In this document: piece by piece, positions 19,493 to 37,246 of the stretch
How positions within the stretch are numbered: position 1 is the first letter of the stretch
Layout: every line of letters starts with the position of its first letter
Translations under genes and position numbers: made by a program
Origin: a bacterium
Lineage (GTDB): Bacteria > J088 > JAWLBW01
Direction: 5' to 3'
Assembly: GCA_041690355.1 (NCBI GenBank)
Contig: JAWLHK010000004.1
Span: 186,001-250,000, forward strand
DNA: 64,000 nt
The notes under the pieces: generated by a model
Told to the model about the DNA's origin: nothing
Seen by the model: the letters and a program-made list of their open reading frames with translations, nothing else
Database searches by the model: none

Positions 19493-20446
19493 TCAGTCGA
19501 CGGGCGGGGTGTCGGACAGACCGTCGAGATAGCGTTCGGCGTCGATCGCCGCCATGCAGCCGCTGCCCGCGGCGGTAATTGCCTGACGGTATTTGTGATC
19601 CTGTACGTCGCCGGCGGCGAAAACACCCGGGACGCTCGTATGCGTGCCGTCCTGCGTCAGCAGGTAACCCTGCTCATCCATGGCGAGCTGCCCCTTGAAG
19701 ATGGCGGTATTGGGCGTGTGGCCGATGGCAACGAAGACGCCGTCGAGGGCGATGTCGCTGACGGCGTCGGTCTCGACGTTGCGCACGCGTACGCCGGTCA
19801 CGCCGGTGCCCTCCCGATCGCCCAGAACCTCGTCGATGACCGAGTTGAGCTGGAACTCGATACGGGGGTTCGCCTGGGCGCGGTCCTGCATGATCTTGCT
19901 GGCGCGCATGCGGTCGCGGCGATGGATGATGACGACGTCGGCGAATTTGGTCAGAAAGTTTGCTTCTTCCATGGCGCTGTCGCCGCCGCCGACGACTGCC
20001 ACTTTCTTGCCTCGGAAAAAGGCGCCGTCACAGGTCGCGCAGGTCGAAACGCCGTAGCCCATGAGCCGCTTTTCAGACTCGAGTCCGAGCAGGCGGGCCG
20101 AAGCGCCGCTCGCAATGATCAGGGCGCGGCACTCGAAGACGTCGCCGTCGCCGTAGACGCGCTGGGTGCCGTTCGGGGTGAGCTCGACCTTCTCGACCGA
20201 ACGGACCATGAGCTTCGCGCCGAAGCGCTCGGCCTGCTTGCGCATCTCTTCCATGAGCGCCGGGCCCATGATGCCGTCGGCAAAGCCCGGAAAGTTCTCC
20301 ACATCGGTCGTCGTCGTCAGCTGTCCGCCGGGCTGAATGCCTTCGAGCACGATTACGTTCAGGTTGGCGCGCGCGGTGTAAACGGCCGAGGTGAGGCCGG
20401 CCGGGCCGGAACCGATGATGAGCACGTCGCTTTGGTGCAGGGCCAT
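19493..20446 (-). CDS. trxB: Thioredoxin reductase
   Basis: IIGSGPAG, GGQLTTTTDVENFPGF, CATCDG redox motif, VGGGDSAMEEA, HRRD, GVFAAGDVQD..YRQAITAAGSGCMAA. Confidence 0.97.
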   Translation of the reverse strand: MALHQSDVLIIGSGPAGLTSAVYTARANLNVIVLEGIQPGGQLTTTTDVENFPGFADGIMGPALMEEMRKQAERFGAKLMVRSVEKVELTPNGTQRVYGDGDVFECRALIIASGASARLLGLESEKRLMGYGVSTCATCDGAFFRGKKVAVVGGGDSAMEEANFLTKFADVVIIHRRDRMRASKIMQDRAQANPRIEFQLNSVIDEVLGDREGTGVTGVRVRNVETDAVSDIALDGVFVAIGHTPNTAIFKGQLAMDEQGYLLTQDGTHTSVPGVFAAGDVQDHKYRQAITAAGSGCMAAIDAERYLDGLSDTPPVD

Positions 20447-26432: not shown

Positions 26433-28154
26433 ATGCGTAAGTCCGGCATCCTTCTTCTGCTTTCGCTCACCCTGGCGGCCGAGGCCCACGCCGATCAGTA
26501 CAGCCTCATCGGCTCGAGCGCCGAATCGGTGGCCCAGGGCGGGGCGCTCACCGCCGGTTCGGCCGGCGCCTCGGGCGCTTTCTACAACCCCGCAACGGTC
26601 GGCAAGAACAAGCTTCAGGAGTCGGAGTTCAGCTACATCTGGGCCAAGCCGGTGCTTTCGATCGACCGCGAGCGGCACTCCGAAACCGCCGAGTACATTC
26701 AGGCGGGCCCGATCCGCGACGAAGAAGATACCCGCTATGCCGAGAAGCTGTCGACCTACCACCTGATCCGCTATCAGAACCAGGTCAACAATCTGCAGGA
26801 AGACCGCGCCGAAAACGTGCCGCTCATCCGTGGCTTCAACATCGGCTTCGTCATGCCGCTTGCACGGCGCGACCGCGGTCCCAACGGTGAACTCGTACCC
26901 GCCCCCGCCTTTCTGAAGCGCCCGTTCACGCTCGGCGTGCTGGTCTACGTGCCCCAAGGTCCGATCCTGCGCCAGCGCGTCAACGCGCCTGAGACCCCGT
27001 ACTTCGTGGAGTTCGACGACCGCAGCCAGCGCCTGGTGGCCAACGCCGCCGTCAGCTACGACGTTCTTGAGAACCTGCGCCTGGGCGCCGGCGTTTCGAT
27101 GCTGGCCGACGTCAATGCAAGCCTTTCGGTGTTCGTACCCGTGCAGCTGCAGATTGAGAGCCTGATCTCCGAGATGGGCCTGCCTGCCGTCACGATTACA
27201 CCGCTGGCCGAAATTGAAATTCCGCCCGTGCTGGCTCCGACGGCAGGCCTGCAGTGGGAGCCGACCGAGTGGCTCTCCCTCGGCGCCAGCTACCGGCACC
27301 AGATCAAGACCGAAGTCAACGCCGATGCCAACATCTCGGTCTCGACGGGGCTGGCGCGGCCTACGGCAATCCCTGCAGAAATCCAGTCGAGCGCCGCTTT
27401 CACGCCGACACAGGTTGCGGGCGGCGCCCAGGTGAGCCTGCTCGACAAGCGGCTGCGCCTCTCGGCCGACGCGACCTGGTCCGAATGGTCAGAATACCGC
27501 CCGCCTGTGGCCGAGTTCCGCATCAGCAACATCCGCAGGCTCGTGAATGACATCATCGAAGGCAGCGGCGCAGAGCAATTCGCAGAGGAGCTGACCATCA
27601 ACTTTGAAGGCGTCGAAGTTCCGCTTGGCGACATCCTGGCTCTATTGCGAAAAGACGTGCCCAACAGCATTCATCAGTATTACGAGTTCGAAGGCTTTGA
27701 GGATACCGTCACACCCCGTTTCGGCGCCGCCTTCGACGTCAACGACAAGTGGACGCTCATGGCCGGGTATTACTATCGTCCGTCCATCATCAGCGACGAC
27801 GGACTCAAGATGACCCGCATCACGACGACCGACTTCGGGCTCGACGCACAGGGTAACCGCAACGTGGTCGTCGAGCGCGACGTCATCAATCACAACACCC
27901 TCGACAACGACCAGCACGGCTTCTCGCTCGGCACCAAGTTCCGCTGGGACAACATCACCTTCGGCGCGACCGCCCTGTTCATCGACCTGGTCGAGCAGAC
28001 CGTCGACAAGACCGCCGACGACGACCTGATCCCCGACGACGAAGCCGACTACAACGACGCGCCGGGCACGCAGACGACCCAGTGGGGCTATCCCGGTTAC
28101 ACCTACGGCGGCCACATCGTCGGCGGCATGGTGCAGCTCGGCTACGAATTCTGA
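26433..28154 (+). CDS. FadL/OmpP1-like outer-membrane hydrophobic-compound transporter
   Basis: Signal peptide; GSSAESVAQGGALTA...AFYNPA hatch motif; WSEWS; DTVTPRFG; C-terminal LGYEF. Confidence 0.85.
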   Translation: MRKSGILLLLSLTLAAEAHADQYSLIGSSAESVAQGGALTAGSAGASGAFYNPATVGKNKLQESEFSYIWAKPVLSIDRERHSETAEYIQAGPIRDEEDTRYAEKLSTYHLIRYQNQVNNLQEDRAENVPLIRGFNIGFVMPLARRDRGPNGELVPAPAFLKRPFTLGVLVYVPQGPILRQRVNAPETPYFVEFDDRSQRLVANAAVSYDVLENLRLGAGVSMLADVNASLSVFVPVQLQIESLISEMGLPAVTITPLAEIEIPPVLAPTAGLQWEPTEWLSLGASYRHQIKTEVNADANISVSTGLARPTAIPAEIQSSAAFTPTQVAGGAQVSLLDKRLRLSADATWSEWSEYRPPVAEFRISNIRRLVNDIIEGSGAEQFAEELTINFEGVEVPLGDILALLRKDVPNSIHQYYEFEGFEDTVTPRFGAAFDVNDKWTLMAGYYYRPSIISDDGLKMTRITTTDFGLDAQGNRNVVVERDVINHNTLDNDQHGFSLGTKFRWDNITFGATALFIDLVEQTVDKTADDDLIPDDEADYNDAPGTQTTQWGYPGYTYGGHIVGGMVQLGYEF

Positions 28155-28219: not shown

Positions 28220-28912
28220 TCAGCGCACGTCGCCGTACCAGCGGGCGAGCCGCTGCGGAGAGACCCCCAACCGGTACAGGAGCGGAAAGACGTTGACCGC
28301 GATCGTAAAGGCAAGCGGACGCGCCAGAAAGCGCCGTCCCGAGACCTCGACGGTGGCCGGCACGGTCTGCACACGGCCCCAGGCCTTCATGCGCCGTGAA
28401 AACTCAAGATCCTCCATGAGCGGCTGGTCGGGAAAGCCGTCCATGGCGTCGAAGGTCTGGCGGCGCACGAAAATCGCCTGATCGCCGTAGGGCACCATGG
28501 TGTAGCGAGAACGCAGGTCGGCCAGAAACAGCAGCGGAGTCAGCCTGCTCGCCCCCGCGTCGCAGACCGTGCGGATGCGAAAGGCCCCGCCGACGACCGC
28601 CGGATCACGCAACGCGGCGCGCACGCGGGAGAAGGCGTCGGCGGGCAGCCGGCAGTCTGCATGCAGAAAGAGCAGAATCTCGCCGGTACTCTCTCGGGCG
28701 CCGAGGTTCATCTGGCGCGCCCGTCCCCGCCGGCCGGGGCCCGCATCGATGAGATTGACGGCGGGAAACTCGCGCACGCGGTCGGGCGTTCCATCGGTGC
28801 TTCCGCCATCGACGACGACCACCTCGTCGGCTGCGAGCGCGCGCAGCTCTTCGAGCCGCGAACCGATGCGCGCCGATTCGTTGAGCGTCGGGATGATGAC
28901 CGAGATCCGCAT
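28220..28912 (-). CDS. GT2 glycosyltransferase, TIGR04283-like (arsenosugar-biosynthesis-associated family)
   Basis: ISVIIPTLNE, VVDGGSTDGT, GRARQMNLGA, LLFLHADC, PYGDQAIFVRR, GFPDQPLMEDLEFSRR, VSGRRF motifs. Confidence 0.88.
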   Translation of the reverse strand: MRISVIIPTLNESARIGSRLEELRALAADEVVVVDGGSTDGTPDRVREFPAVNLIDAGPGRRGRARQMNLGARESTGEILLFLHADCRLPADAFSRVRAALRDPAVVGGAFRIRTVCDAGASRLTPLLFLADLRSRYTMVPYGDQAIFVRRQTFDAMDGFPDQPLMEDLEFSRRMKAWGRVQTVPATVEVSGRRFLARPLAFTIAVNVFPLLYRLGVSPQRLARWYGDVR

Positions 28913-28918
28913 GGGGGC

Positions 28919-29650
28919 CTATTCGACGGGGGCGCCGGGAACGGCGTCCCGCGCAGGCATGTCCGCGCGCAGCCGGCGTTCGAGCGCCCGCCGTGCCGCG
29001 CGCGCGAGAAGCCCCGTGGCCGCAAGCGTCGCGACGAGACCGCCCCAGAACAGAATCCGGCTCGCCGCGCCGCCGTCGGGCCGATCGGCAAGCAGGCGGG
29101 CCACGTCGGTCACGAGCGAGCCGAGGTAGATGTAAAGGAACGTTCCGGGGAGCATGCCCACGAACGAAGCCAGCACGTAGGCGCCGGTGCGCATGGGGGT
29201 CAGGGCCACGGCGTAGTTGAGCAGGTTGAAGGGAACGAGCGGGCTCAGCCGCAACAGCAGCAGAATGCGAAAGCCGTCGGCGCGAATGGCGTCTTCGATG
29301 GCGCCGAGCAGGGGCCGGCTCGCCACGCGCGCCGCAAGCCGCCGGCTCCCCAGTGCGCGGCCGATCAGAAACGCGCACGTTGCGGCAAGCACGCTCACGG
29401 GCGAAACGAGCAGCACGCCGTAACCCAGACCCCAGACGAAGCCGGCCCCCAGGGTCAGGATCGAGGCCGGCAGCAGGAGCACGGTGCTCGCCACGTACAC
29501 GAGGGCGAAGACGAGAACCCCCGCGGGCCCCGCCCCGCGAATCCAATCGACAAGGGCGAGAAGCGATTCGCCCACCGGCAGCAGCCGCGATGCGGCGACG
29601 ACGGCCACGGCCGCCGCAGCCAGAAGTCCGATGCGCAATGCGCGGCTCAT
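28919..29650 (-). CDS. TVP38/TMEM64 (DedA, SNARE-associated) membrane protein
   Basis: LLLPASILTLGAGFVWG, LLLRLSPLVPFNLLNY, GMLPGTFLYIYLG; ATGA overlap with upstream fusion gene. Confidence 0.92.
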   Translation of the reverse strand: MSRALRIGLLAAAAVAVVAASRLLPVGESLLALVDWIRGAGPAGVLVFALVYVASTVLLLPASILTLGAGFVWGLGYGVLLVSPVSVLAATCAFLIGRALGSRRLAARVASRPLLGAIEDAIRADGFRILLLLRLSPLVPFNLLNYAVALTPMRTGAYVLASFVGMLPGTFLYIYLGSLVTDVARLLADRPDGGAASRILFWGGLVATLAATGLLARAARRALERRLRADMPARDAVPGAPVE

Positions 29651-30927
29651 GCGGCCTGCGCCGCTTGCAGCCGGCGGTGCAGGATCGCCTGGAGGCGAAT
29701 CCGGCCGGCCGTATCGATGAGGGGCGGCTGGGTCATGAGCGCCACGTCGAGGTTTCTGCGGCAGGCGCAGGGGGCTGCCGGAGCGACATGCTCGGCCACA
29801 TGCGTGACGATGCGCCGGCCCTTGTCGACGTTCGCGCGAAGCACGGTCATGATGTCGTCGACATTCGCTTCGCGGGTCGCCGGGCGCCAGCAGTCATAAT
29901 CGGTCGGCAGCGCCAGGGTGGCATAGCAGATCTCGGCCTCACGGGCGAGCCGGGCCTCGGGATGGTTCGTCATGCCTACCAGATCGGCCCCCCACTGGCG
30001 GAACAGGTCGGATTCGGCGCGGGTAGAAAACTGCGGTCCCTCGATACAGACGTAGGTCCCCGCGGCGTGTACGCGGCCCGGTTCGGTCCGGGCCCCGTCG
30101 GCGATACTGTCGGCAAGATGGCCGCAGACGGGCTCGGCGAGGCTGCAGTGCGCGACCACCCCCGAACCGAAGAAGGTCGCCGGCCGGCTCACGGTGCGGT
30201 CGATGAACTGCCGCGGGGTGACGATGTCGCCGGGGGCGATCTCTTCGCGCAACGAGCCCACGGCCGAAATCGAAATGACCCGCGTGACCCCCAGGCGCTT
30301 GAAGCCGTAGAAGTTGGCGCGGGAGTTGACCTCGTAGGGGAGCAGGCGGTGCCCCCGGCCGTGCCGCGCGAGAAAGACGACCCGCCGGCCGTGCAGACGC
30401 CCGACGAGATAGGCGTCAGAGGGGCGCCCGAACGGGGTGTCGACGTGAATCTGCGTTACCGCTTCGAGACCCGGCAGATCGTAGAAGCCCGATCCGCCCA
30501 GAAAACCGAGCGCGGGCTCGGGAGCGAATTCCGCCGACAGCGCGTCGATCCGTTCCACCAGGGCATCGCGCACCGACTGGAAAGCCGGAAACGACTCCGG
30601 CCCCGGCACGCGCGCCGGATCGGCGAACCCCCAGTGCCGGACGGCGACGCCCGGCAGGGAGGGGCAGGCCGCCGCCGCCTCGTCGCAGAGCGTGATCACG
30701 AGCCCGACCTGATCGAGGGGAATGTCGTTCAGGTGCTTCGAGTCATAGTCGGAGATGTCGACATCGACTTCGGCGAGGGCCTGCACGGCGCGCGGATCGA
30801 GCCCGCGGGGCCGGGTGCCGGCGCTCCACACCGGAATGTCGGGCGCGAGAAACCGCCGCGCTATCCCTTCGGCCATCTGGCTGCGGGCGGCGTTGGCAGT
30901 GCAGAGAAAGAGAACACCTTTGCGCAT
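29647..30927 (-). CDS. Fusion: thioredoxin-type arsenate reductase ArsC (aa 1-~130) plus S-methyl-5'-thioadenosine phosphorylase (aa ~140-426)
   Basis: ArsC: LFLCTANAARSQMAEG, SAGT, ITLCDEAAAACP, HWGFADPA. MTAP: GFLGGSG, TPFGRPS, FLARHG, SAVGSL, QFIDRT, EGPQFSTRAES, GMT..PEA.LAREAEICY, TDYDCW. Single frame, no Met in the linker. Confidence 0.92.
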   Translation of the reverse strand: MRKGVLFLCTANAARSQMAEGIARRFLAPDIPVWSAGTRPRGLDPRAVQALAEVDVDISDYDSKHLNDIPLDQVGLVITLCDEAAAACPSLPGVAVRHWGFADPARVPGPESFPAFQSVRDALVERIDALSAEFAPEPALGFLGGSGFYDLPGLEAVTQIHVDTPFGRPSDAYLVGRLHGRRVVFLARHGRGHRLLPYEVNSRANFYGFKRLGVTRVISISAVGSLREEIAPGDIVTPRQFIDRTVSRPATFFGSGVVAHCSLAEPVCGHLADSIADGARTEPGRVHAAGTYVCIEGPQFSTRAESDLFRQWGADLVGMTNHPEARLAREAEICYATLALPTDYDCWRPATREANVDDIMTVLRANVDKGRRIVTHVAEHVAPAAPCACRRNLDVALMTQPPLIDTAGRIRLQAILHRRLQAAQAA

Positions 30928-30936
30928 GGGAGAACC

Positions 30937-31755
30937 TCAAGGGCGGTGCCGCTCGTTGAGCGACCAGTCGTAATCCAGAAATCGTACGGTCAGTTCGGGT
31001 TCGGTAACTCGCGAAGCGGCGTCCGAAGATAGATGGCGGACGACGAAGGCCGACACCGAGCCGTCCGAACGTTCAAAGTCGTCGGCAAACCACTTGAAAA
31101 TCGCCGACAGATGCAGCGTGTGGGTCTGCTCATCGTAGCGGCTCCCCTTCGCGGCGGCGAGGTAGCGCCGGGTCGCGGTGTCGAGACGGGTGTCGAGCGT
31201 ATCCCCCCGCCAGGCCTCGCCCGACAGATCGGGGCAGCCGACGGCGGCGCAGACGAGCGCGAAGTGGATGCGCGGTTCCCGGTAGCGTTTGCGCAGAATC
31301 CGATGCTCGATGTGATCGAGGCTGAACTCCGCGTCGCCGTTATCTACAAGGCGCGAACGGATGAAGTCGCGCCGGAACGCGGCGTGCGGCAGCCAGCCGA
31401 TCACGCGGATGCTCGCAATCGGATATTCGGCCACGACGAGCGCGACGGTGGCGGCATTGTACAGGTTGATCCAGTAGGCGATCTGCTCAGGCTCGCTCCA
31501 CGTCGCATACGCATCAGGACAGGCGGCGCCGAGGGCCGCCAGATAGCCCTCGAGGCGGGCGCGTGCCTCCGCGTCGGCGTGGAGGCGTCGATAGTCGACG
31601 CGCCCGTCGGCTACGAACTCGCCGAGAAAGGCCGTCCAGGCGGCATGGCTGTGGTCGAAGGGCGCGCACGTCTCTTCTACGGCAGCTGCGGCCGGGGCCG
31701 GCGCGGTCACGGCGGAAATGCACGGGAACAGCAGGAGTAGAAGACGGGCGCGCAT
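30937..31755 (-). CDS. DUF547 domain exported protein
   Basis: Signal peptide; DGRVDY, IAYWINLYNA, SLDHIEHRILR, EPRIHFALVCAAVGCPDL, LSAIFKWFADDF, DYDWSLN. Confidence 0.92.
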   Translation of the reverse strand: MRARLLLLLFPCISAVTAPAPAAAAVEETCAPFDHSHAAWTAFLGEFVADGRVDYRRLHADAEARARLEGYLAALGAACPDAYATWSEPEQIAYWINLYNAATVALVVAEYPIASIRVIGWLPHAAFRRDFIRSRLVDNGDAEFSLDHIEHRILRKRYREPRIHFALVCAAVGCPDLSGEAWRGDTLDTRLDTATRRYLAAAKGSRYDEQTHTLHLSAIFKWFADDFERSDGSVSAFVVRHLSSDAASRVTEPELTVRFLDYDWSLNERHRP

Positions 31756-31763
31756 GTCTGGAC

Positions 31764-31840
31764 ATGATAACGGGTTTGCGCCCCCCCTGTCGCGAAACCT
31801 GCGCCCCGTTCGGCTCTGCTTGCTTCCGGCAGAGCGGAAC
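31764..31840 (-). promoter_or_regulatory. Candidate near-leaderless promoter and upstream 12-9-12 inverted repeat for the DUF547/ArsC-MTAP operon
   Basis: Minus strand GCGACA-18-TATCAT (31769-31764), 8 nt before ATG 31755; GTTCGGCTCTGC-N9-GCAGAGCGGAAC at 31808-31840 (11/12 match). Confidence 0.45.
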
Positions 31841-31874
31841 CCCGGGCGGCGATGCGTTACACTGTTCTGTCACC

Positions 31875-32801
31875 ATGGCCGATCCGCAACCGACATCCGC
31901 TTCGCCGGAGGCATCCCGGGAACGCACGCGGGAGATCCGCGCGTTTCTCGTCTGGACCTTCGCCCTCAGCTGGAGCCTGGCGCTCGGCTTCAGGCTGGCC
32001 GGCGGCGAGTGGCAGGGGACGGCTTCTTATGTGGTCGCCATCGTCTACATGTACATGCCCGCGCTTGCGGCCGTCATCGTCGCACGCTTCCACGCGCGCA
32101 AGCCGATCGGCAGCGACCTTGGCGTCCGGTTGCGCCCCAACCGCTGGTTCGCCGTCGCCGCCGTGCTCCCGCTGCTGCTTGCCGTGGCGACCCTCGGCGC
32201 GGGCCTGCTGGTTCCCGGCGTGCGCTTCGATCCGCTCATGACCGACCTGATCGAGCGGCTCGCCGCGCTGGCCCCGGGCGTGAGCCCCGAGGCGATTCGC
32301 GAGCAGATGGACGTACTGCCCGTGCATCCTTACTGGCTGGCCATCCCCCAGGCGCTCATCGCGGGCGCGACGATCAACGCCCTCGTCGCCTTCGGCGAAG
32401 AGCTGGGGTGGCGCGGGTTTCTCTACACGCGCACGATTCACCTCGGCTTCTGGAAGAGTTCTGCGCTCATCGGCCTCATCTGGGGCGTCTGGCACGCGCC
32501 GATCATCCTGCAAGGGCACAACTATCCCGACCACCCGGTGGCGGGCGTGTTCCTGATGACGCTCTGGACACTCCTGCTGGCGCCGCTCTTCCAGTGGATC
32601 CGCCTGCGATCGCAGAGCGTGGTCGCCGCCGCCATCCTGCACGGGGCGCTCAACGCCTCGGCGGGCTTGGCCGTCATGGTGCTCAGCGGGGGCAACGATC
32701 TGACGATCGGCCTGACCGGTGCAGCCGGAATGGCCGTTCTGCTCGTCGCGAATCTGGTGCTCGCCCTGGCCCCCGCGCGGCAGAAGGAGCCGGCGCCATG
32801 A
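31875..32801 (+). CDS. CPBP family (CAAX/Abi) intramembrane glutamic endopeptidase
   Basis: Multiple TMs; GEELGWRGFL, GLIWGVWHAP, AAILHGALN motifs. Confidence 0.92.
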   Translation: MADPQPTSASPEASRERTREIRAFLVWTFALSWSLALGFRLAGGEWQGTASYVVAIVYMYMPALAAVIVARFHARKPIGSDLGVRLRPNRWFAVAAVLPLLLAVATLGAGLLVPGVRFDPLMTDLIERLAALAPGVSPEAIREQMDVLPVHPYWLAIPQALIAGATINALVAFGEELGWRGFLYTRTIHLGFWKSSALIGLIWGVWHAPIILQGHNYPDHPVAGVFLMTLWTLLLAPLFQWIRLRSQSVVAAAILHGALNASAGLAVMVLSGGNDLTIGLTGAAGMAVLLVANLVLALAPARQKEPAP

Positions 32802-34181: not shown

Positions 34182-34265
34182 GGAGACACCCGGTTTGCAG
34201 AGCGCCTTGACGCTTTGCGTCGACATCCCGGACTGCGTTATTCTGTGGGCAAGCGAGGAGAACGC

Positions 34266-35108
34266 ATGCTGATCCAGCCGACGCACGAGTTTTCCTGGGA
34301 TCGGGTTTTCCGCCCCGGGGTCATGGCGCGCCTGCTCACCTTTCTGGGGCTGCGCAAGGAAGCGATCATCCGCTTTCTGAATTATCCCCAGTTCGCCGTC
34401 GTTATCCTGCTGCTCGTCCCCTACCTGATTCTTGCGCCGGTGGTCACCCTGACCCTGGGGCGGCGCGCCGACTGGGCGGTGCAGAAAGTCTTCGGGTGGA
34501 TGTGGCTGGCCGTCTTCGGCATCTACCGCCGCGTGTGGATTCACCCGGAGATCAGGCGGGACGCACAGTACGTCTACATGGCCGAGCACTTCTCGCTTCA
34601 CGACGTTCCGCTCTACGGTTCGACCTGGCCCACCGTGACCGCGGCGCTGAGCGCGAAAGAATACGCCAACGTGCCGATGTACGGCTGGGTCATCCGCGCC
34701 GCCGGCACCCAGTTCATCGAGCGCCGCGACACCCGCGAGGCGATCGCCGACCTTCACGCCCTGCGCGACAGGATGGGGCCCGACGGCCTGTCGGTGCTTG
34801 TCGTGCCCACCGGAACGCGCGCCGAGAACGCCCAGCTGCTCCCCTTCAAGAAAGGGGTCTTCTTTTTTTCCACCGAGCTGAAGAAGCCCATCGTTCCTCT
34901 CTGTCTCGTGGGGCTCGAACATCTGCGCGTGGGCAAGAATTACTGCCGCCCGGGACGCGTCGACGTCGTCTACGGGCAGCCCATCCGCCCCGAAGACCAC
35001 CCCGAAGCCTTCGCTTCACCCGAGGCCCTGCGCGATCTCGTACGCGCCCGCATGCTCGACGAGGGCCGCGAGCTGCGCCGGCAGCGTCAGCTGCTGCTCC
35101 GCAATTGA
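34266..35108 (+). CDS. Lysophospholipid acyltransferase (PlsC-like)
   Basis: HFSLHD (HxxxxD), FIERR, VPTGTR (usually PEGTR), LLPFKKGVF, PIVP; GAGGAG RBS. Confidence 0.85.
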   Translation: MLIQPTHEFSWDRVFRPGVMARLLTFLGLRKEAIIRFLNYPQFAVVILLLVPYLILAPVVTLTLGRRADWAVQKVFGWMWLAVFGIYRRVWIHPEIRRDAQYVYMAEHFSLHDVPLYGSTWPTVTAALSAKEYANVPMYGWVIRAAGTQFIERRDTREAIADLHALRDRMGPDGLSVLVVPTGTRAENAQLLPFKKGVFFFSTELKKPIVPLCLVGLEHLRVGKNYCRPGRVDVVYGQPIRPEDHPEAFASPEALRDLVRARMLDEGRELRRQRQLLLRN

Positions 35109-35111
35109 GCG

Positions 35112-35131
35112 GGCCCCGGCTCACCGGGGCC
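35112..35131. repeat. Perfect 8-bp hairpin without U-tract
   Basis: GGCCCCGG-CTCA-CCGGGGCC right after the plsC-like stop. Confidence 0.6.
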
Positions 35132-35272
35132 GGACGCCTCACCTTACCTACCGCGTGGTAGAATACGCTTGACTTCGCGGGGCATACGGGATGATAATGC
35201 TCCCACTGAACGGGCGCTTTTCCAGGCGCCACTGCCTCCTTGTCTCCGCATAACGCTACCCAGGTGAATGCC

Positions 35273-37246
35273 ATGATCGGTGCCGCACAACCGCTTCGCA
35301 ACCCGGCCCGCCACGTTGCCGACCAGTCTCGCAACCTGCCGGATCTGTTCCTCAACCGCGTCCGTGCCACCCCGCAGCGCGTGGCCTACAAGCACAAGGA
35401 GCGCGGCCGCTGGATCGACACGACCTGGCACGGCTTTCACGACCAGTCGTCGCGCGTCGCCTCCTGGCTGATCACCAGGGGCATTCAAGCCGGTGACAAA
35501 GTCTGCGTGGTCGGAAGCACCCGCCCCGAATGGGTGCTCTGCGACATGGGCGGGCAGCTTGCGGGCGCAGTGACCATCGGCGCCTATCCGACTTCGTCAC
35601 CCGACCAGCTCGCTTACATCGTCGAGCATTCCGAGTCGAAAATCGTCTTCGTCGAGGGCAAGGAAGAAATCGCCAAGATTCTGGAGATCAAGGATCGCAT
35701 CCCCGGCGTGCAATGCGTCGTCGTCTGGCGCCGAGACGCGCTGGGCCCCGAGCTCGCCGGCAATGCGCTCTTCGCCGTATTCGAAGACGTGCTCGACACT
35801 TCGGCCGACCCCAAGGCCATCGCCGAACGGGTCGATGCCGTCAAGCCCGATGACACGGCCATCATCGTCTACACGAGCGGCACGACGGGGCCGCCGAAGG
35901 GGGCCATGATCTCGCAGGGAAACATCATCTCGTATATCCGGGGCACCCAGGGCCTGGTTCCCTTCGACGCCGACGACATCAGCCTGAACTTTCTGCCCAT
36001 GGCGCACGTGGCCGAGCGCATCGCCGGCTTCTACGCCCGCATCTCGGCCGGCATCACGGCCGCCTATGCGTCGAGCGTGCCCGCCGTGCTCGAAGAGGTG
36101 AAGGAGGTGCGCCCGACGGTCTTCGGGAGCGTGCCCCGTATTTTCGAAAAGGCGTACGCCAAGATGAAGGGCGAGGTAGCCAAGGCGCCCGCGGGCAAGC
36201 AGAAGGTGTTCGCGAAAGCCGAGGCGGTGGGCCGCGAGGTCGTCCGCCACTGGCAGCGCGGCGAAAAGGTTCCGCTCGGCCTCGCCATCCAGTACAAGCT
36301 CTTCGACAAGCTGGTCTTCTCCAAGATCCGCGAGGTCTTCGGCGGCCGCGTACGCAACTTTCTTACCGGTGCGGCGCCGATCTCCTACGAGATTCTCGAA
36401 TTCTTCTGGGCCGCCGGCTTCCCCATCTACGAAGTGTACGGCATGACCGAAGCCACCGTGATCACGCACGGCAACCGGCCCGGCGACGTGCGCCTCGGAA
36501 CAGTCGGGAAGGCGATCGCCCCGATGGTCGAAGAGAAGCTGGCCGACGACGGCGAAATCCTCATCCGCGGCGCGACGGTTTTCAAGGGTTACTACAAGAA
36601 CCCCGAAGCGACCGCCGAGGCCATCGACAAGGACGGCTGGCTGCACACCGGCGACATCGGCCGGCGCGAACCCGACGGCTCGCTGCGCATCGTCGACCGC
36701 AAGAAGCACATCATCATCACGGCGGGCGGCAAGAACATTACGCCGGCCAACATCGAGCAGGACATCAAAGGACAGGATGCGCTCATCAGCAACGTGCACG
36801 CGCACGGCGATCGGCGCGCCTACCTGACTGCGCTCGTGACCATTCACCCCATGGAGGCCATCGAGTGGGCGCGCGCCAATAACCTGCTCACCGACAACGC
36901 GCTGGCCGATCGGCTCGTCAAGGCGCTGATGGAGAACCCGCTGGCCCGCCCCGAAGGGCTCGACGGGGTCATGCAGACGGTCACCGAACGGCCCGAGATC
37001 CGCTCGCGCATCGCGGCGGCCGTGCAACGTGCGAACCGCTCGCTGTCGCGGGTCGAAACGATCAAGAAGGTCTACGTGCTCGAGCGTGACTTCAGCCTCG
37101 AAGAAGATGAAATCACGCCGACGATGAAGATCAAGCGCAAGAACGTCGAGAAGAAGTTCACCGCGCTTTTCGATCGTCTCTACGAGGACAAGGCGTTCGG
37201 GATCGTCATCGAGGACGAGAACAAAGGGGCGGCGGTCTCGATCTGA
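35273..37246 (+). CDS. Long-chain acyl-CoA synthetase (AMP-dependent ligase)
   Basis: IVYTSGTTGPPKG, FLPMAHVAER, EVYGMTE, GWLHTGDIG, DRKKHIIITAGGKNI; candidate promoter TTGACT-18-GATAAT at 35169-35198. Confidence 0.93.
   Translation: MIGAAQPLRNPARHVADQSRNLPDLFLNRVRATPQRVAYKHKERGRWIDTTWHGFHDQSSRVASWLITRGIQAGDKVCVVGSTRPEWVLCDMGGQLAGAVTIGAYPTSSPDQLAYIVEHSESKIVFVEGKEEIAKILEIKDRIPGVQCVVVWRRDALGPELAGNALFAVFEDVLDTSADPKAIAERVDAVKPDDTAIIVYTSGTTGPPKGAMISQGNIISYIRGTQGLVPFDADDISLNFLPMAHVAERIAGFYARISAGITAAYASSVPAVLEEVKEVRPTVFGSVPRIFEKAYAKMKGEVAKAPAGKQKVFAKAEAVGREVVRHWQRGEKVPLGLAIQYKLFDKLVFSKIREVFGGRVRNFLTGAAPISYEILEFFWAAGFPIYEVYGMTEATVITHGNRPGDVRLGTVGKAIAPMVEEKLADDGEILIRGATVFKGYYKNPEATAEAIDKDGWLHTGDIGRREPDGSLRIVDRKKHIIITAGGKNITPANIEQDIKGQDALISNVHAHGDRRAYLTALVTIHPMEAIEWARANNLLTDNALADRLVKALMENPLARPEGLDGVMQTVTERPEIRSRIAAAVQRANRSLSRVETIKKVYVLERDFSLEEDEITPTMKIKRKNVEKKFTALFDRLYEDKAFGIVIEDENKGAAVSI

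Follow-up and report, generated by a model that had tools for sequence, protein, structure and literature searches.

A gene fusing an arsenate reductase to a methylthioadenosine phosphorylase is conserved in ArsS clusters and is a candidate for the adenine-removal step of arsenosugar synthesis

The window analysed here is a 64,000-nucleotide stretch of bacterial DNA (contig JAWLHK010000004.1 of assembly GCA_041690355.1) and contains a gene in which a domain of the arsenate reductase ArsC is followed in frame by an S-methyl-5'-thioadenosine phosphorylase (MTAP) domain. The fused gene (29647..30927, minus strand) is conserved within the ArsS clusters of its relatives. From this context we give about even chances to the reading that it encodes a rigid two-domain enzyme of the ArsS arsenosugar pathway, where the MTAP half would phosphorolyse 5'-deoxy-5'-dimethylarsinoyl-adenosine (DDMAA) and the ArsC half would supply arsenite. 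The components belong to well-known families, and the new element would be the role in the pathway. In marine food webs, arsenosugars and arsenosugar lipids rank among the major forms of arsenic.

The fused gene in ArsS clusters

Eight metagenomic loci carrying the fusion were compared, which correspond to about five lineages by similarity. The arsS gene was identified upstream and on the same strand in seven of them, and the eighth (L134) stops at the contig edge. In 6 of the 8 loci the stop codon of arsS overlaps the start of the fusion (ATGA). The gene order of the long loci is DUF547, ArsS, the fusion, a PiT/PHO4 transporter, VTT, a flavin adenine dinucleotide (FAD) pyridine-nucleotide-disulfide oxidoreductase (NF004991, 769 bits, cut-off 620), TIGR04282, TIGR04283 and a CMD/YciW-like protein. 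The TIGR04282 protein is a DUF2064 protein and its only relative in the PDB is 3cgx, annotated as a putative nucleotide-diphospho-sugar transferase. Locus L138 presents an ArsM-like gene upstream of arsS, and also a SelL/AhpC-like thioredoxin-fold gene (L138:2249-2902) placed between arsS and the fusion with ATGA overlaps on both sides, whose product could be a dedicated redox partner.

The control set comprises 80 loci with unfused MTAPs, taken from a genome-contig search among the matches listed, and no fused locus is found among them. ArsS, TIGR04282, TIGR04283, VTT, DUF547 and ArsC were absent near the unfused MTAP in all 80 loci (flanks of up to 10 kb) and in all of 30 loci with flanks of about 1.5 kb. 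No nucleosidase or phosphorylase besides the fusion was seen in any ArsS cluster looked at.

The fusion is a lineage-specific addition to a widespread ArsS cluster, inserted directly after arsS, and not a universal member of it, because five genomes with an unfused MTAP (G001, G002, G003, G007 and G008) hold ArsS clusters that lack the fusion. The clusters of these genomes share ArsM, ArsS, PiT, VTT, oxidoreductase, DUF547 and glycosyltransferase genes with those that bear it.

As a separate observation, the ArsS clusters of several lineages (L135:4154-7583, L134:359-1921 and L148-L152) contain VTT/TVP38, FAD oxidoreductase and DUF547 genes and often PHO4/PiT.

Operon and genome of the window

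The fused gene belongs to an operon of four genes on the same strand, DUF547, the fusion, VTT and a TIGR04283 glycosyltransferase, separated by gaps of 9 nt and 6 nt and by one ATGA overlap. The first gene (30937..31755, minus strand; Pfam DUF547, 87 bits) has homologues of 47% identity upstream of arsS in L135 and L140 and inside the ArsS clusters of G002, G003 and G007. The third encodes a VTT-domain (TVP38/DedA-like) membrane protein (28919..29650, minus strand), its ATG overlapping the TGA of the fusion, and its homologues (51-54% identical) were identified downstream of the fusion in L134, L135, L137, L138 and L140. The last one encodes a TIGR04283 arsenosugar biosynthesis glycosyltransferase of family 2 (GT2) (28220..28912, minus strand; 212.9 bits, cut-off 182), and homologues about 60% identical close the clusters in L135, L137 and L140.

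The genome of the window (G000) comprises 4.64 Mb in 42 contigs and is 100% complete. Its contig C1 contains ArsS (TIGR04167, 442.1 bits, cut-off 300) adjoining TIGR04282 (153.7 bits, cut-off 134), so that ArsS, TIGR04282 and TIGR04283 are each above cut-off in this genome. The operon of the window and the ArsS-TIGR04282 pair of C1 are collinear subsets of the full ArsS cluster of the relatives.

Sequence, linker and recurrence of the fusion

The gene is one open reading frame of 426 amino acids with an ATG start and its stop codon at 29647-29649. Its G+C content at third codon positions is 0.84, and other genes of the window are alike. Pfam identifies LMWPc at residues 5-129 (54.8 bits) and PNP_UDP_1 at residues 141-377 (139 bits). 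The ArsC-like (LMWPc) domain comprises residues 1-135 (30523..30927, minus strand) with Cys9-X5-Arg15, Cys81, Cys88 and Asp103, and the MTAP domain comprises residues 136-426 (29650..30522, minus strand) with a complete catalytic set. Between them lies the 8-residue linker AEFAPEPA (residues 132-139; 30511..30534, minus strand), and no in-frame ATG, GTG or TTG is present in the linker DNA. The linker is conserved in an alignment of 30 fused homologues with the consensus L-x-PEPA-x-G, P138 and A139 being near-invariant. An earlier note, made from the letters of the window, had described a single 426-residue frame with two complete domains and a linker without a start codon; the first description is borne out by the open reading frame list, Pfam, NCBIfam and the PDB matches, and the second by the linker DNA.

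The homologue search covered 5.8 billion protein clusters and the best 120 matches were listed. Both Pfam domains were identified in 26 of these 120 (the window protein included), and an N-terminal extension of at least 90 amino acids, judged by the position of the MTAP glycine loop, was found in 34 of 118 listed homologous clusters. A DNA pattern for the junction, running from the HW..DP motif of ArsC to the GGSGFY motif of MTAP and lying wholly within the fused gene, gave one match in the window and none in 100 shuffles, and eight metagenomic contigs were matched. The recurrence of the LMWPc plus PNP_UDP_1 architecture, which the earlier note had put forward as a check, is thus found in protein clusters and in metagenomic contigs alike. 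That note had also counted as adverse a unique fusion whose MTAP domain was the only ordinary MtnP of the genome: the domain is indeed the only MTAP there, but the fusion is not unique. A frameshift or misassembly as the source of the fusion is very unlikely, because the same junction occurs in the eight metagenomic contigs and in the 34 protein clusters.

An ArsS-MTAP or other triple fusion was not found among 37 matches of a search for longer homologous proteins, which is weak evidence. Among long eukaryotic proteins (P0136-P0159) the MTAP domain is paired with 6-phosphogluconate dehydrogenase (many from Aspergillus) or with CorA (Mortierella), pairings that may be genuine or may come from merged gene models.

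The MTAP half

The fused protein matches the NCBIfam model for MTAP, TIGR01694, with 292.1 bits, above its cut-off of 274.85. The longer MTAP models NF006492, NF005657 and NF006334 are matched with E values from 1e-87 to 1e-106, each below its own cut-off. In the PDB the C-terminal 290 residues or so match 4glf (E 8.7e-79) and human MTAP, 1cb0 (E 1.8e-67). The TDYD motif named in the earlier note was found as T342-D343-Y344-D345, with T342, D343 and D345 invariant across the 30 fused homologues. Ten positions (R188, H189, S221, A222, H260, F300, M319, T320, D343 and D345) show no variation across 33 fused and 82 unfused relatives, and we take these columns to be phosphate-, ribose- and adenine-binding, as in the human MTAP structures. 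Two pocket-adjacent columns do differ, 301 and 359, which hold Ser and Val/Ile in the fused forms and Gly and Ala in the unfused clade; the residues of the fused forms are presumably the canonical ones of MTAP.

The genome of the window contains no TIGR01694 match besides the fusion. The MtnN nucleosidase was found neither there nor in the other genomes of its small phylum, G001-G004 (completeness 84-98%). From the sole genomic MTAP and from no MtnN having been found, the MTAP half probably serves as a housekeeping enzyme as well, being the only one of the cell that cleaves MTA and 5'-deoxyadenosine.

The ArsC half

The N-terminal 136 residues find their best PDB match in 1jl3 (E 3.3e-30), and the eight best PDB matches are all arsenate reductases. 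Cys9 and Arg15 align to the CX5R loop of 1jl3 and 1ljl, Cys81 and Cys88 to the relay pair Cys82 and Cys89, and Asp103 aligns within the HWGFDDPA motif, which reads HWGFADPA here. The five catalytic residues listed in the earlier note are therefore all there when aligned to the ArsC structures of B. subtilis and S. aureus. Identity as a low-molecular-weight protein tyrosine phosphatase (LMW-PTP) was considered for this domain and rejected, given the Cys81/Cys88 pair and the ArsC enzymes among the top PDB matches; a generic protein of the LMW phosphatase family appears among the matches only at E 2e-19.

On the NCBIfam model arsC_pI258_fam (TIGR02691) the fusion reaches 112.6 bits, under the cut-off of 174.3. 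This score looks like lineage-wide phylogenetic distance rather than divergent function, because the ArsC of the ars operon in the same genome scores equally low (108.6 bits). As an observation apart, this ars-operon ArsC is a fusion too, and its 283 aa end in a VOC domain that resembles ArsI/CadI (NF041414, E 2.1e-10, below cut-off).

The catalytic residues are not kept throughout the family. Among the 30 aligned fused homologues, 16 present all five, 11 have substitutions at them and 3 are N-terminally truncated records. P0020, P0023, P0024, P0026, P0032, P0033 and P0098 are fused homologues with a fully degenerate ArsC domain. The ArsC half would thus be catalytic in some fused members and structural in all, and its catalytic residues seem to be dispensable across the family.

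Predicted structure and interface

The AlphaFold2 model, made with a 30-row alignment, has a mean predicted local distance difference test (pLDDT) of 89.6 and a predicted template-modelling score of 0.92. The ArsC domain has a pLDDT of 86-96 per 10-residue block, and the blocks spanning residues 121-140 have 95 and 94. In the model the last ArsC helix (109-133) runs nearly straight into the first MTAP strand (139-144). The fusion is accordingly predicted to be a rigid two-domain unit, with ArsC packing on the C-terminal helices of MTAP.

When the halves were predicted as separate chains the interface score was 0.70, and the best of three controls reached 0.01. Between runs at least 93% of contacts agree, with a partner pLDDT of 90 or more. 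Of 80 solved complexes, 58 attain the mark used for an interface, as do 2 of 110 mismatched pairs, counts that hold only roughly here since a custom alignment was used; being made with the halves of one natural chain, the test speaks to packing within the molecule. It seems unlikely that the score comes from model memory of a solved complex, because PDB searches with each half listed no chain containing both domains.

The predicted contacts comprise positions 136, 158, 160-162, 165, 175, 208, 211-213, 406-411, 413-414, 417 and 420-421 on the MTAP side, and 22, 25-26, 28-30, 53-56, 120-121, 124, 128-129, 131-132 and 134 on the ArsC side, and contain neither active site. Two independent observations fit the predicted interface. 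Of the four alignment columns that tell fused and unfused MTAPs apart best, three (211, 410 and 413) fall in it (hypergeometric p = 0.0014). The second is the residue retention in degenerate members, where the majority residue of the intact group is kept at ArsC interface positions with a frequency of 0.57, compared with 0.61 in intact members, but drops to 0.29 at catalytic positions and to 0.42 at the remaining ones. With catalysis lost repeatedly and interface residues retained, the fused family would be a clear natural case of a catalytic domain decaying into a structural one.

Phylogeny and origin

The MTAP domain was placed on a quick maximum-likelihood tree (131 rows, with 7 distant MTAPs as the root), in which several forks have weak support. 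Fused forms make up several basal lineages and a clade of 34 rows (32 fused), whose sister clade comprises 83 rows (82 unfused). Intact and degenerate states of ArsC are interspersed on the tree, and at least five changes are forced by well-supported branches.

Genome G004, of the same family as the window genome and 97% complete, contains a fused gene of 413 amino acids between the same CPBP-protease and FadL-like neighbours. The N-terminal domain of this protein lacks the Cys and Arg of the catalytic sites and its MTAP half is intact. The locus lacks the DUF547, VTT and glycosyltransferase genes, and no ArsS, TIGR04282 or TIGR04283 was found above cut-off genome-wide. In this one case, G004, the arsenosugar genes and ArsC catalysis have vanished together while MTAP is retained; the genome-wide comparison of ArsC integrity with arsS presence covers two genomes, G000 and G004.

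Unfused MTAPs with Kofleriaceae or Myxococcota labels share 64-69% identity with the MTAP half, whereas MTAPs of the other family in the five-genome phylum of the window genome share only 49-52%. One of the fused homologues takes its name from a Sandaracinaceae metagenome-assembled genome (MAG). In a 401-genome sample of the phylum of a Myxococcota-labelled MAG, no fused match was present among the best 150 listed (491 weaker matches lay beyond). These identities suggest that the fused gene, perhaps with its cluster, was gained horizontally and displaced the native MTAP, and such a replacement would explain why G004 cannot lose the fused gene.

Proposed role and alternative explanations

According to passages of PMC13598754, ArsS adenosylates DMAs(III) to give DDMAA; it needs the arsenical in this trivalent form and consumes the 5'-deoxyadenosyl radical as a substrate. 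The MTAP half, using phosphate, would then remove adenine from DDMAA, an arsenic analogue of MTA, to give 5-deoxy-5-dimethylarsinoyl-ribose-1-phosphate. The TIGR04282 protein would activate this sugar-1-phosphate, its natural kind of substrate, and the GT2 enzyme TIGR04283 would transfer the activated arsenoribose. An intact ArsC half would reduce arsenate to arsenite and so feed ArsM methylation upstream of ArsS, as a supply local to the pathway. The two active sites would act independently, and the ArsC domain would be retained as a structural element also in members that no longer have its catalysis.

The first of the two models in the earlier note had assigned the de-adenylation of DDMAA to the phosphorylase and the supply of reduced arsenic to ArsC. 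The former assignment gains strong contextual support from the operon with an arsenosugar glycosyltransferase, from arsS upstream in 7 of 8 fused loci and from its absence near all 80 controls. The latter is plausible for the protein of the window, whose catalytic set is intact, but it cannot hold for the whole family, since catalytic residues are missing in 11 of the 30 aligned homologues. Adenine removal thus has a concrete candidate that can be cloned, a phosphorylase placed after arsS with overlapping stop and start codons. If the reading is true, a ribose-1-phosphate intermediate explains the presence in the cluster of a DUF2064 protein resembling nucleotide-sugar transferases beside a GT2 enzyme.

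Several observations weigh against this role. The substitutions in the ArsC half include P0006, the protein of locus L133, in which Cys9 is replaced by Ser and whose gene is nevertheless linked to arsS (the two are identical in the MTAP region). A remodelled pocket for the 5'-substituent was sought in the alignment columns of 33 fused and 82 unfused MTAPs and none was found, so that the MTAP half carries no apparent sequence sign of specialisation for the bulkier, polar arsinoyl group of DDMAA. The case for DDMAA as a substrate is drawn from gene context and chemical analogy. The ArsS clusters of G001, G002, G003, G007 and G008 contain neither MTAP nor ArsC, and the unfused MTAP of these genomes lies elsewhere. 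In the genome of the window, arsS is on another contig (C1) and not beside the fusion, and the ArsM-like gene (C17:39289-40371) is under its cut-offs (NF008823, 197.3 against 263; AsSugarArsM, 113.9 against 400). This genome also contains a separate ArsR-Acr3-ArsC resistance operon (G000:C7:221800-224637), and because of it the fused ArsC would not be needed for bulk arsenate reduction.

Part of these points favour an explanation that we consider unlikely, though to be taken seriously, by which the protein is a housekeeping MTAP with a passenger ArsC, doing ordinary salvage of MTA and 5'-deoxyadenosine, and another enzyme processes DDMAA. The proximity to arsS would then be due to the clearing of inhibitory 5'-deoxyadenosine for the radical S-adenosylmethionine enzyme, or to the ArsC half belonging with arsenic genes. 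It agrees with the fusion being the only MTAP of the genome where no MtnN was found, with active-site columns that are the same as in unfused relatives, with the retention of the fused gene in G004, where no arsenosugar marker is above cut-off, and with ArsS clusters that work elsewhere without a clustered MTAP. However, 5'-deoxyadenosine would be at most a side product, as ArsS uses the radical as substrate (passages of PMC13598754), whereas DDMAA, a 5'-substituted adenosine formed stoichiometrically, must have its adenine removed. No ordinary MTAP locus out of 80 is near ArsS-cluster genes, compared with arsS upstream in seven of eight fused loci (overlapping in six), and the clusters looked at offer no other nucleosidase or phosphorylase for this step.

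A second explanation retains the cleavage of DDMAA by MTAP and makes the ArsC half an organoarsenical reductase, acting on DMAs(V) to give DMAs(III) or on the arsinoyl group of DDMAA or of the ribose product. An ars-operon ArsC is already in the genome, so a second reductase dedicated to the pathway makes sense, and passages of PMC13598754 give the requirement of ArsS for trivalent DMAs(III). The clusters hold redox proteins of their own (the FAD oxidoreductase, the SelL/AhpC-like and the CMD/YciW-like proteins), and the fused domain is below the curated ArsC cut-off (112.6 against 174.3). But the ars-operon ArsC falls as far below, the residues of the oxyanion loop and of the relay all match inorganic arsenate reductases, and the redox genes are also found in clusters without any ArsC, which leaves this explanation improbable. 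We hold in similarly low regard a longer scheme that joins it to a phosphorolytic nucleotide-sugar route to arsenosugars. There, ArsS would form DDMAA, MTAP the ribose-1-phosphate and DUF2064/TIGR04282 an NDP-arsenoribose, and TIGR04283 would transfer the latter to a glycerol or lipid acceptor handled by VTT/DUF547, the ArsC half being a dedicated organoarsenical reductase and not an inorganic arsenate reductase.

The second model of the earlier note, arsenolysis coupled to reduction, is quite improbable. It supposes that MTAP uses arsenate to form a ribose-1-arsenate ester, which is passed to ArsC for reduction, and the prediction of the two domains as one rigid body would suit it. The underlying chemistry is real, as described in passages of PMC3368394. 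On the other side, the predicted interface excludes both active sites, the MTAP half is conserved in the homologues where ArsC catalysis is lost, and the position of the gene after arsS and among glycosyltransferase partners would be left unexplained. Enzymes of the thioredoxin type of ArsC, moreover, reduce free arsenate without prior activation.

Finally, a merger of neighbouring genes by sequencing or assembly error is hardly credible at all in view of a junction with a conserved PEPA linker in 30 aligned homologues of several sources and in eight metagenomic contigs, a linker modelled at pLDDT 94-95 and MTAP surface columns that vary according to whether the N-terminal domain is present.

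Comparison with known systems

The C-terminal 291 residues share the family score and every catalytic column with MTAP/MtnP (TIGR01694; PDB 4glf, 1cb0 and 1wta). Unlike the known enzyme, the fusion carries an N-terminal ArsC and differs from unfused relatives at surface columns 211, 410 and 413; unlike the 80 unfused controls it is encoded in an arsenosugar cluster, with DDMAA as a putative extra substrate. With the thioredoxin-coupled ArsC of S. aureus pI258 and B. subtilis (TIGR02691; 1jl3 and 1ljl) it has in common the LMW-PTP fold, CX5R, Cys81/Cys88 and the Asp of HWGFADPA, but it is fused to MTAP, falls under the family cut-off and belongs to a family where catalytic residues are often lost. 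The ArsS cluster (ArsM, ArsS TIGR04167, TIGR04282 and TIGR04283) is resembled by the window operon in its ending in TIGR04283, and in the relatives the fusion stands between arsS and the remaining cluster genes. In contrast to the ArsS clusters of other lineages the fusion is added here, and NCBIfam release 20 gave no arsenosugar-specific family for its protein. The arsenolysis system of purine nucleoside phosphorylase, as passages of PMC3368394 describe it, likewise brings together a nucleoside phosphorylase and arsenate reduction, but with a single phosphorylase and free thiols and no dedicated ArsC.

In the open-access literature of PubMed Central and bioRxiv, nothing was found that links MTAP or any phosphorylase to arsenosugar synthesis or that describes the fusion. 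The only arsenosugar steps assigned to enzymes in the literature searched were methylation by ArsM and adenosylation to DDMAA by ArsS.

Other features of the window

The operon is flanked by a gene for a FadL/TodX-like outer-membrane protein (26433-28154, plus strand) and by another for a CPBP-family intramembrane protease (31563-32801, plus strand), and both flank the fused gene in G004 as well (L007). The thioredoxin-disulfide reductase TrxB is encoded at 19493-20446 (minus strand; TIGR01292, 397 bits, over cut-off). Its position about 9 kb from the fusion is probably incidental, and such proximity proves nothing. A PlsC-type acyltransferase and a FadD-like acyl-CoA ligase are encoded at 34215-37246 (plus strand), downstream of a TetR-like gene. 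Of the 80 control loci with an unfused MTAP, 14 also have a PlsC homologue nearby, which may reflect an unrelated MTAP-PlsC linkage in Acidobacteriota.

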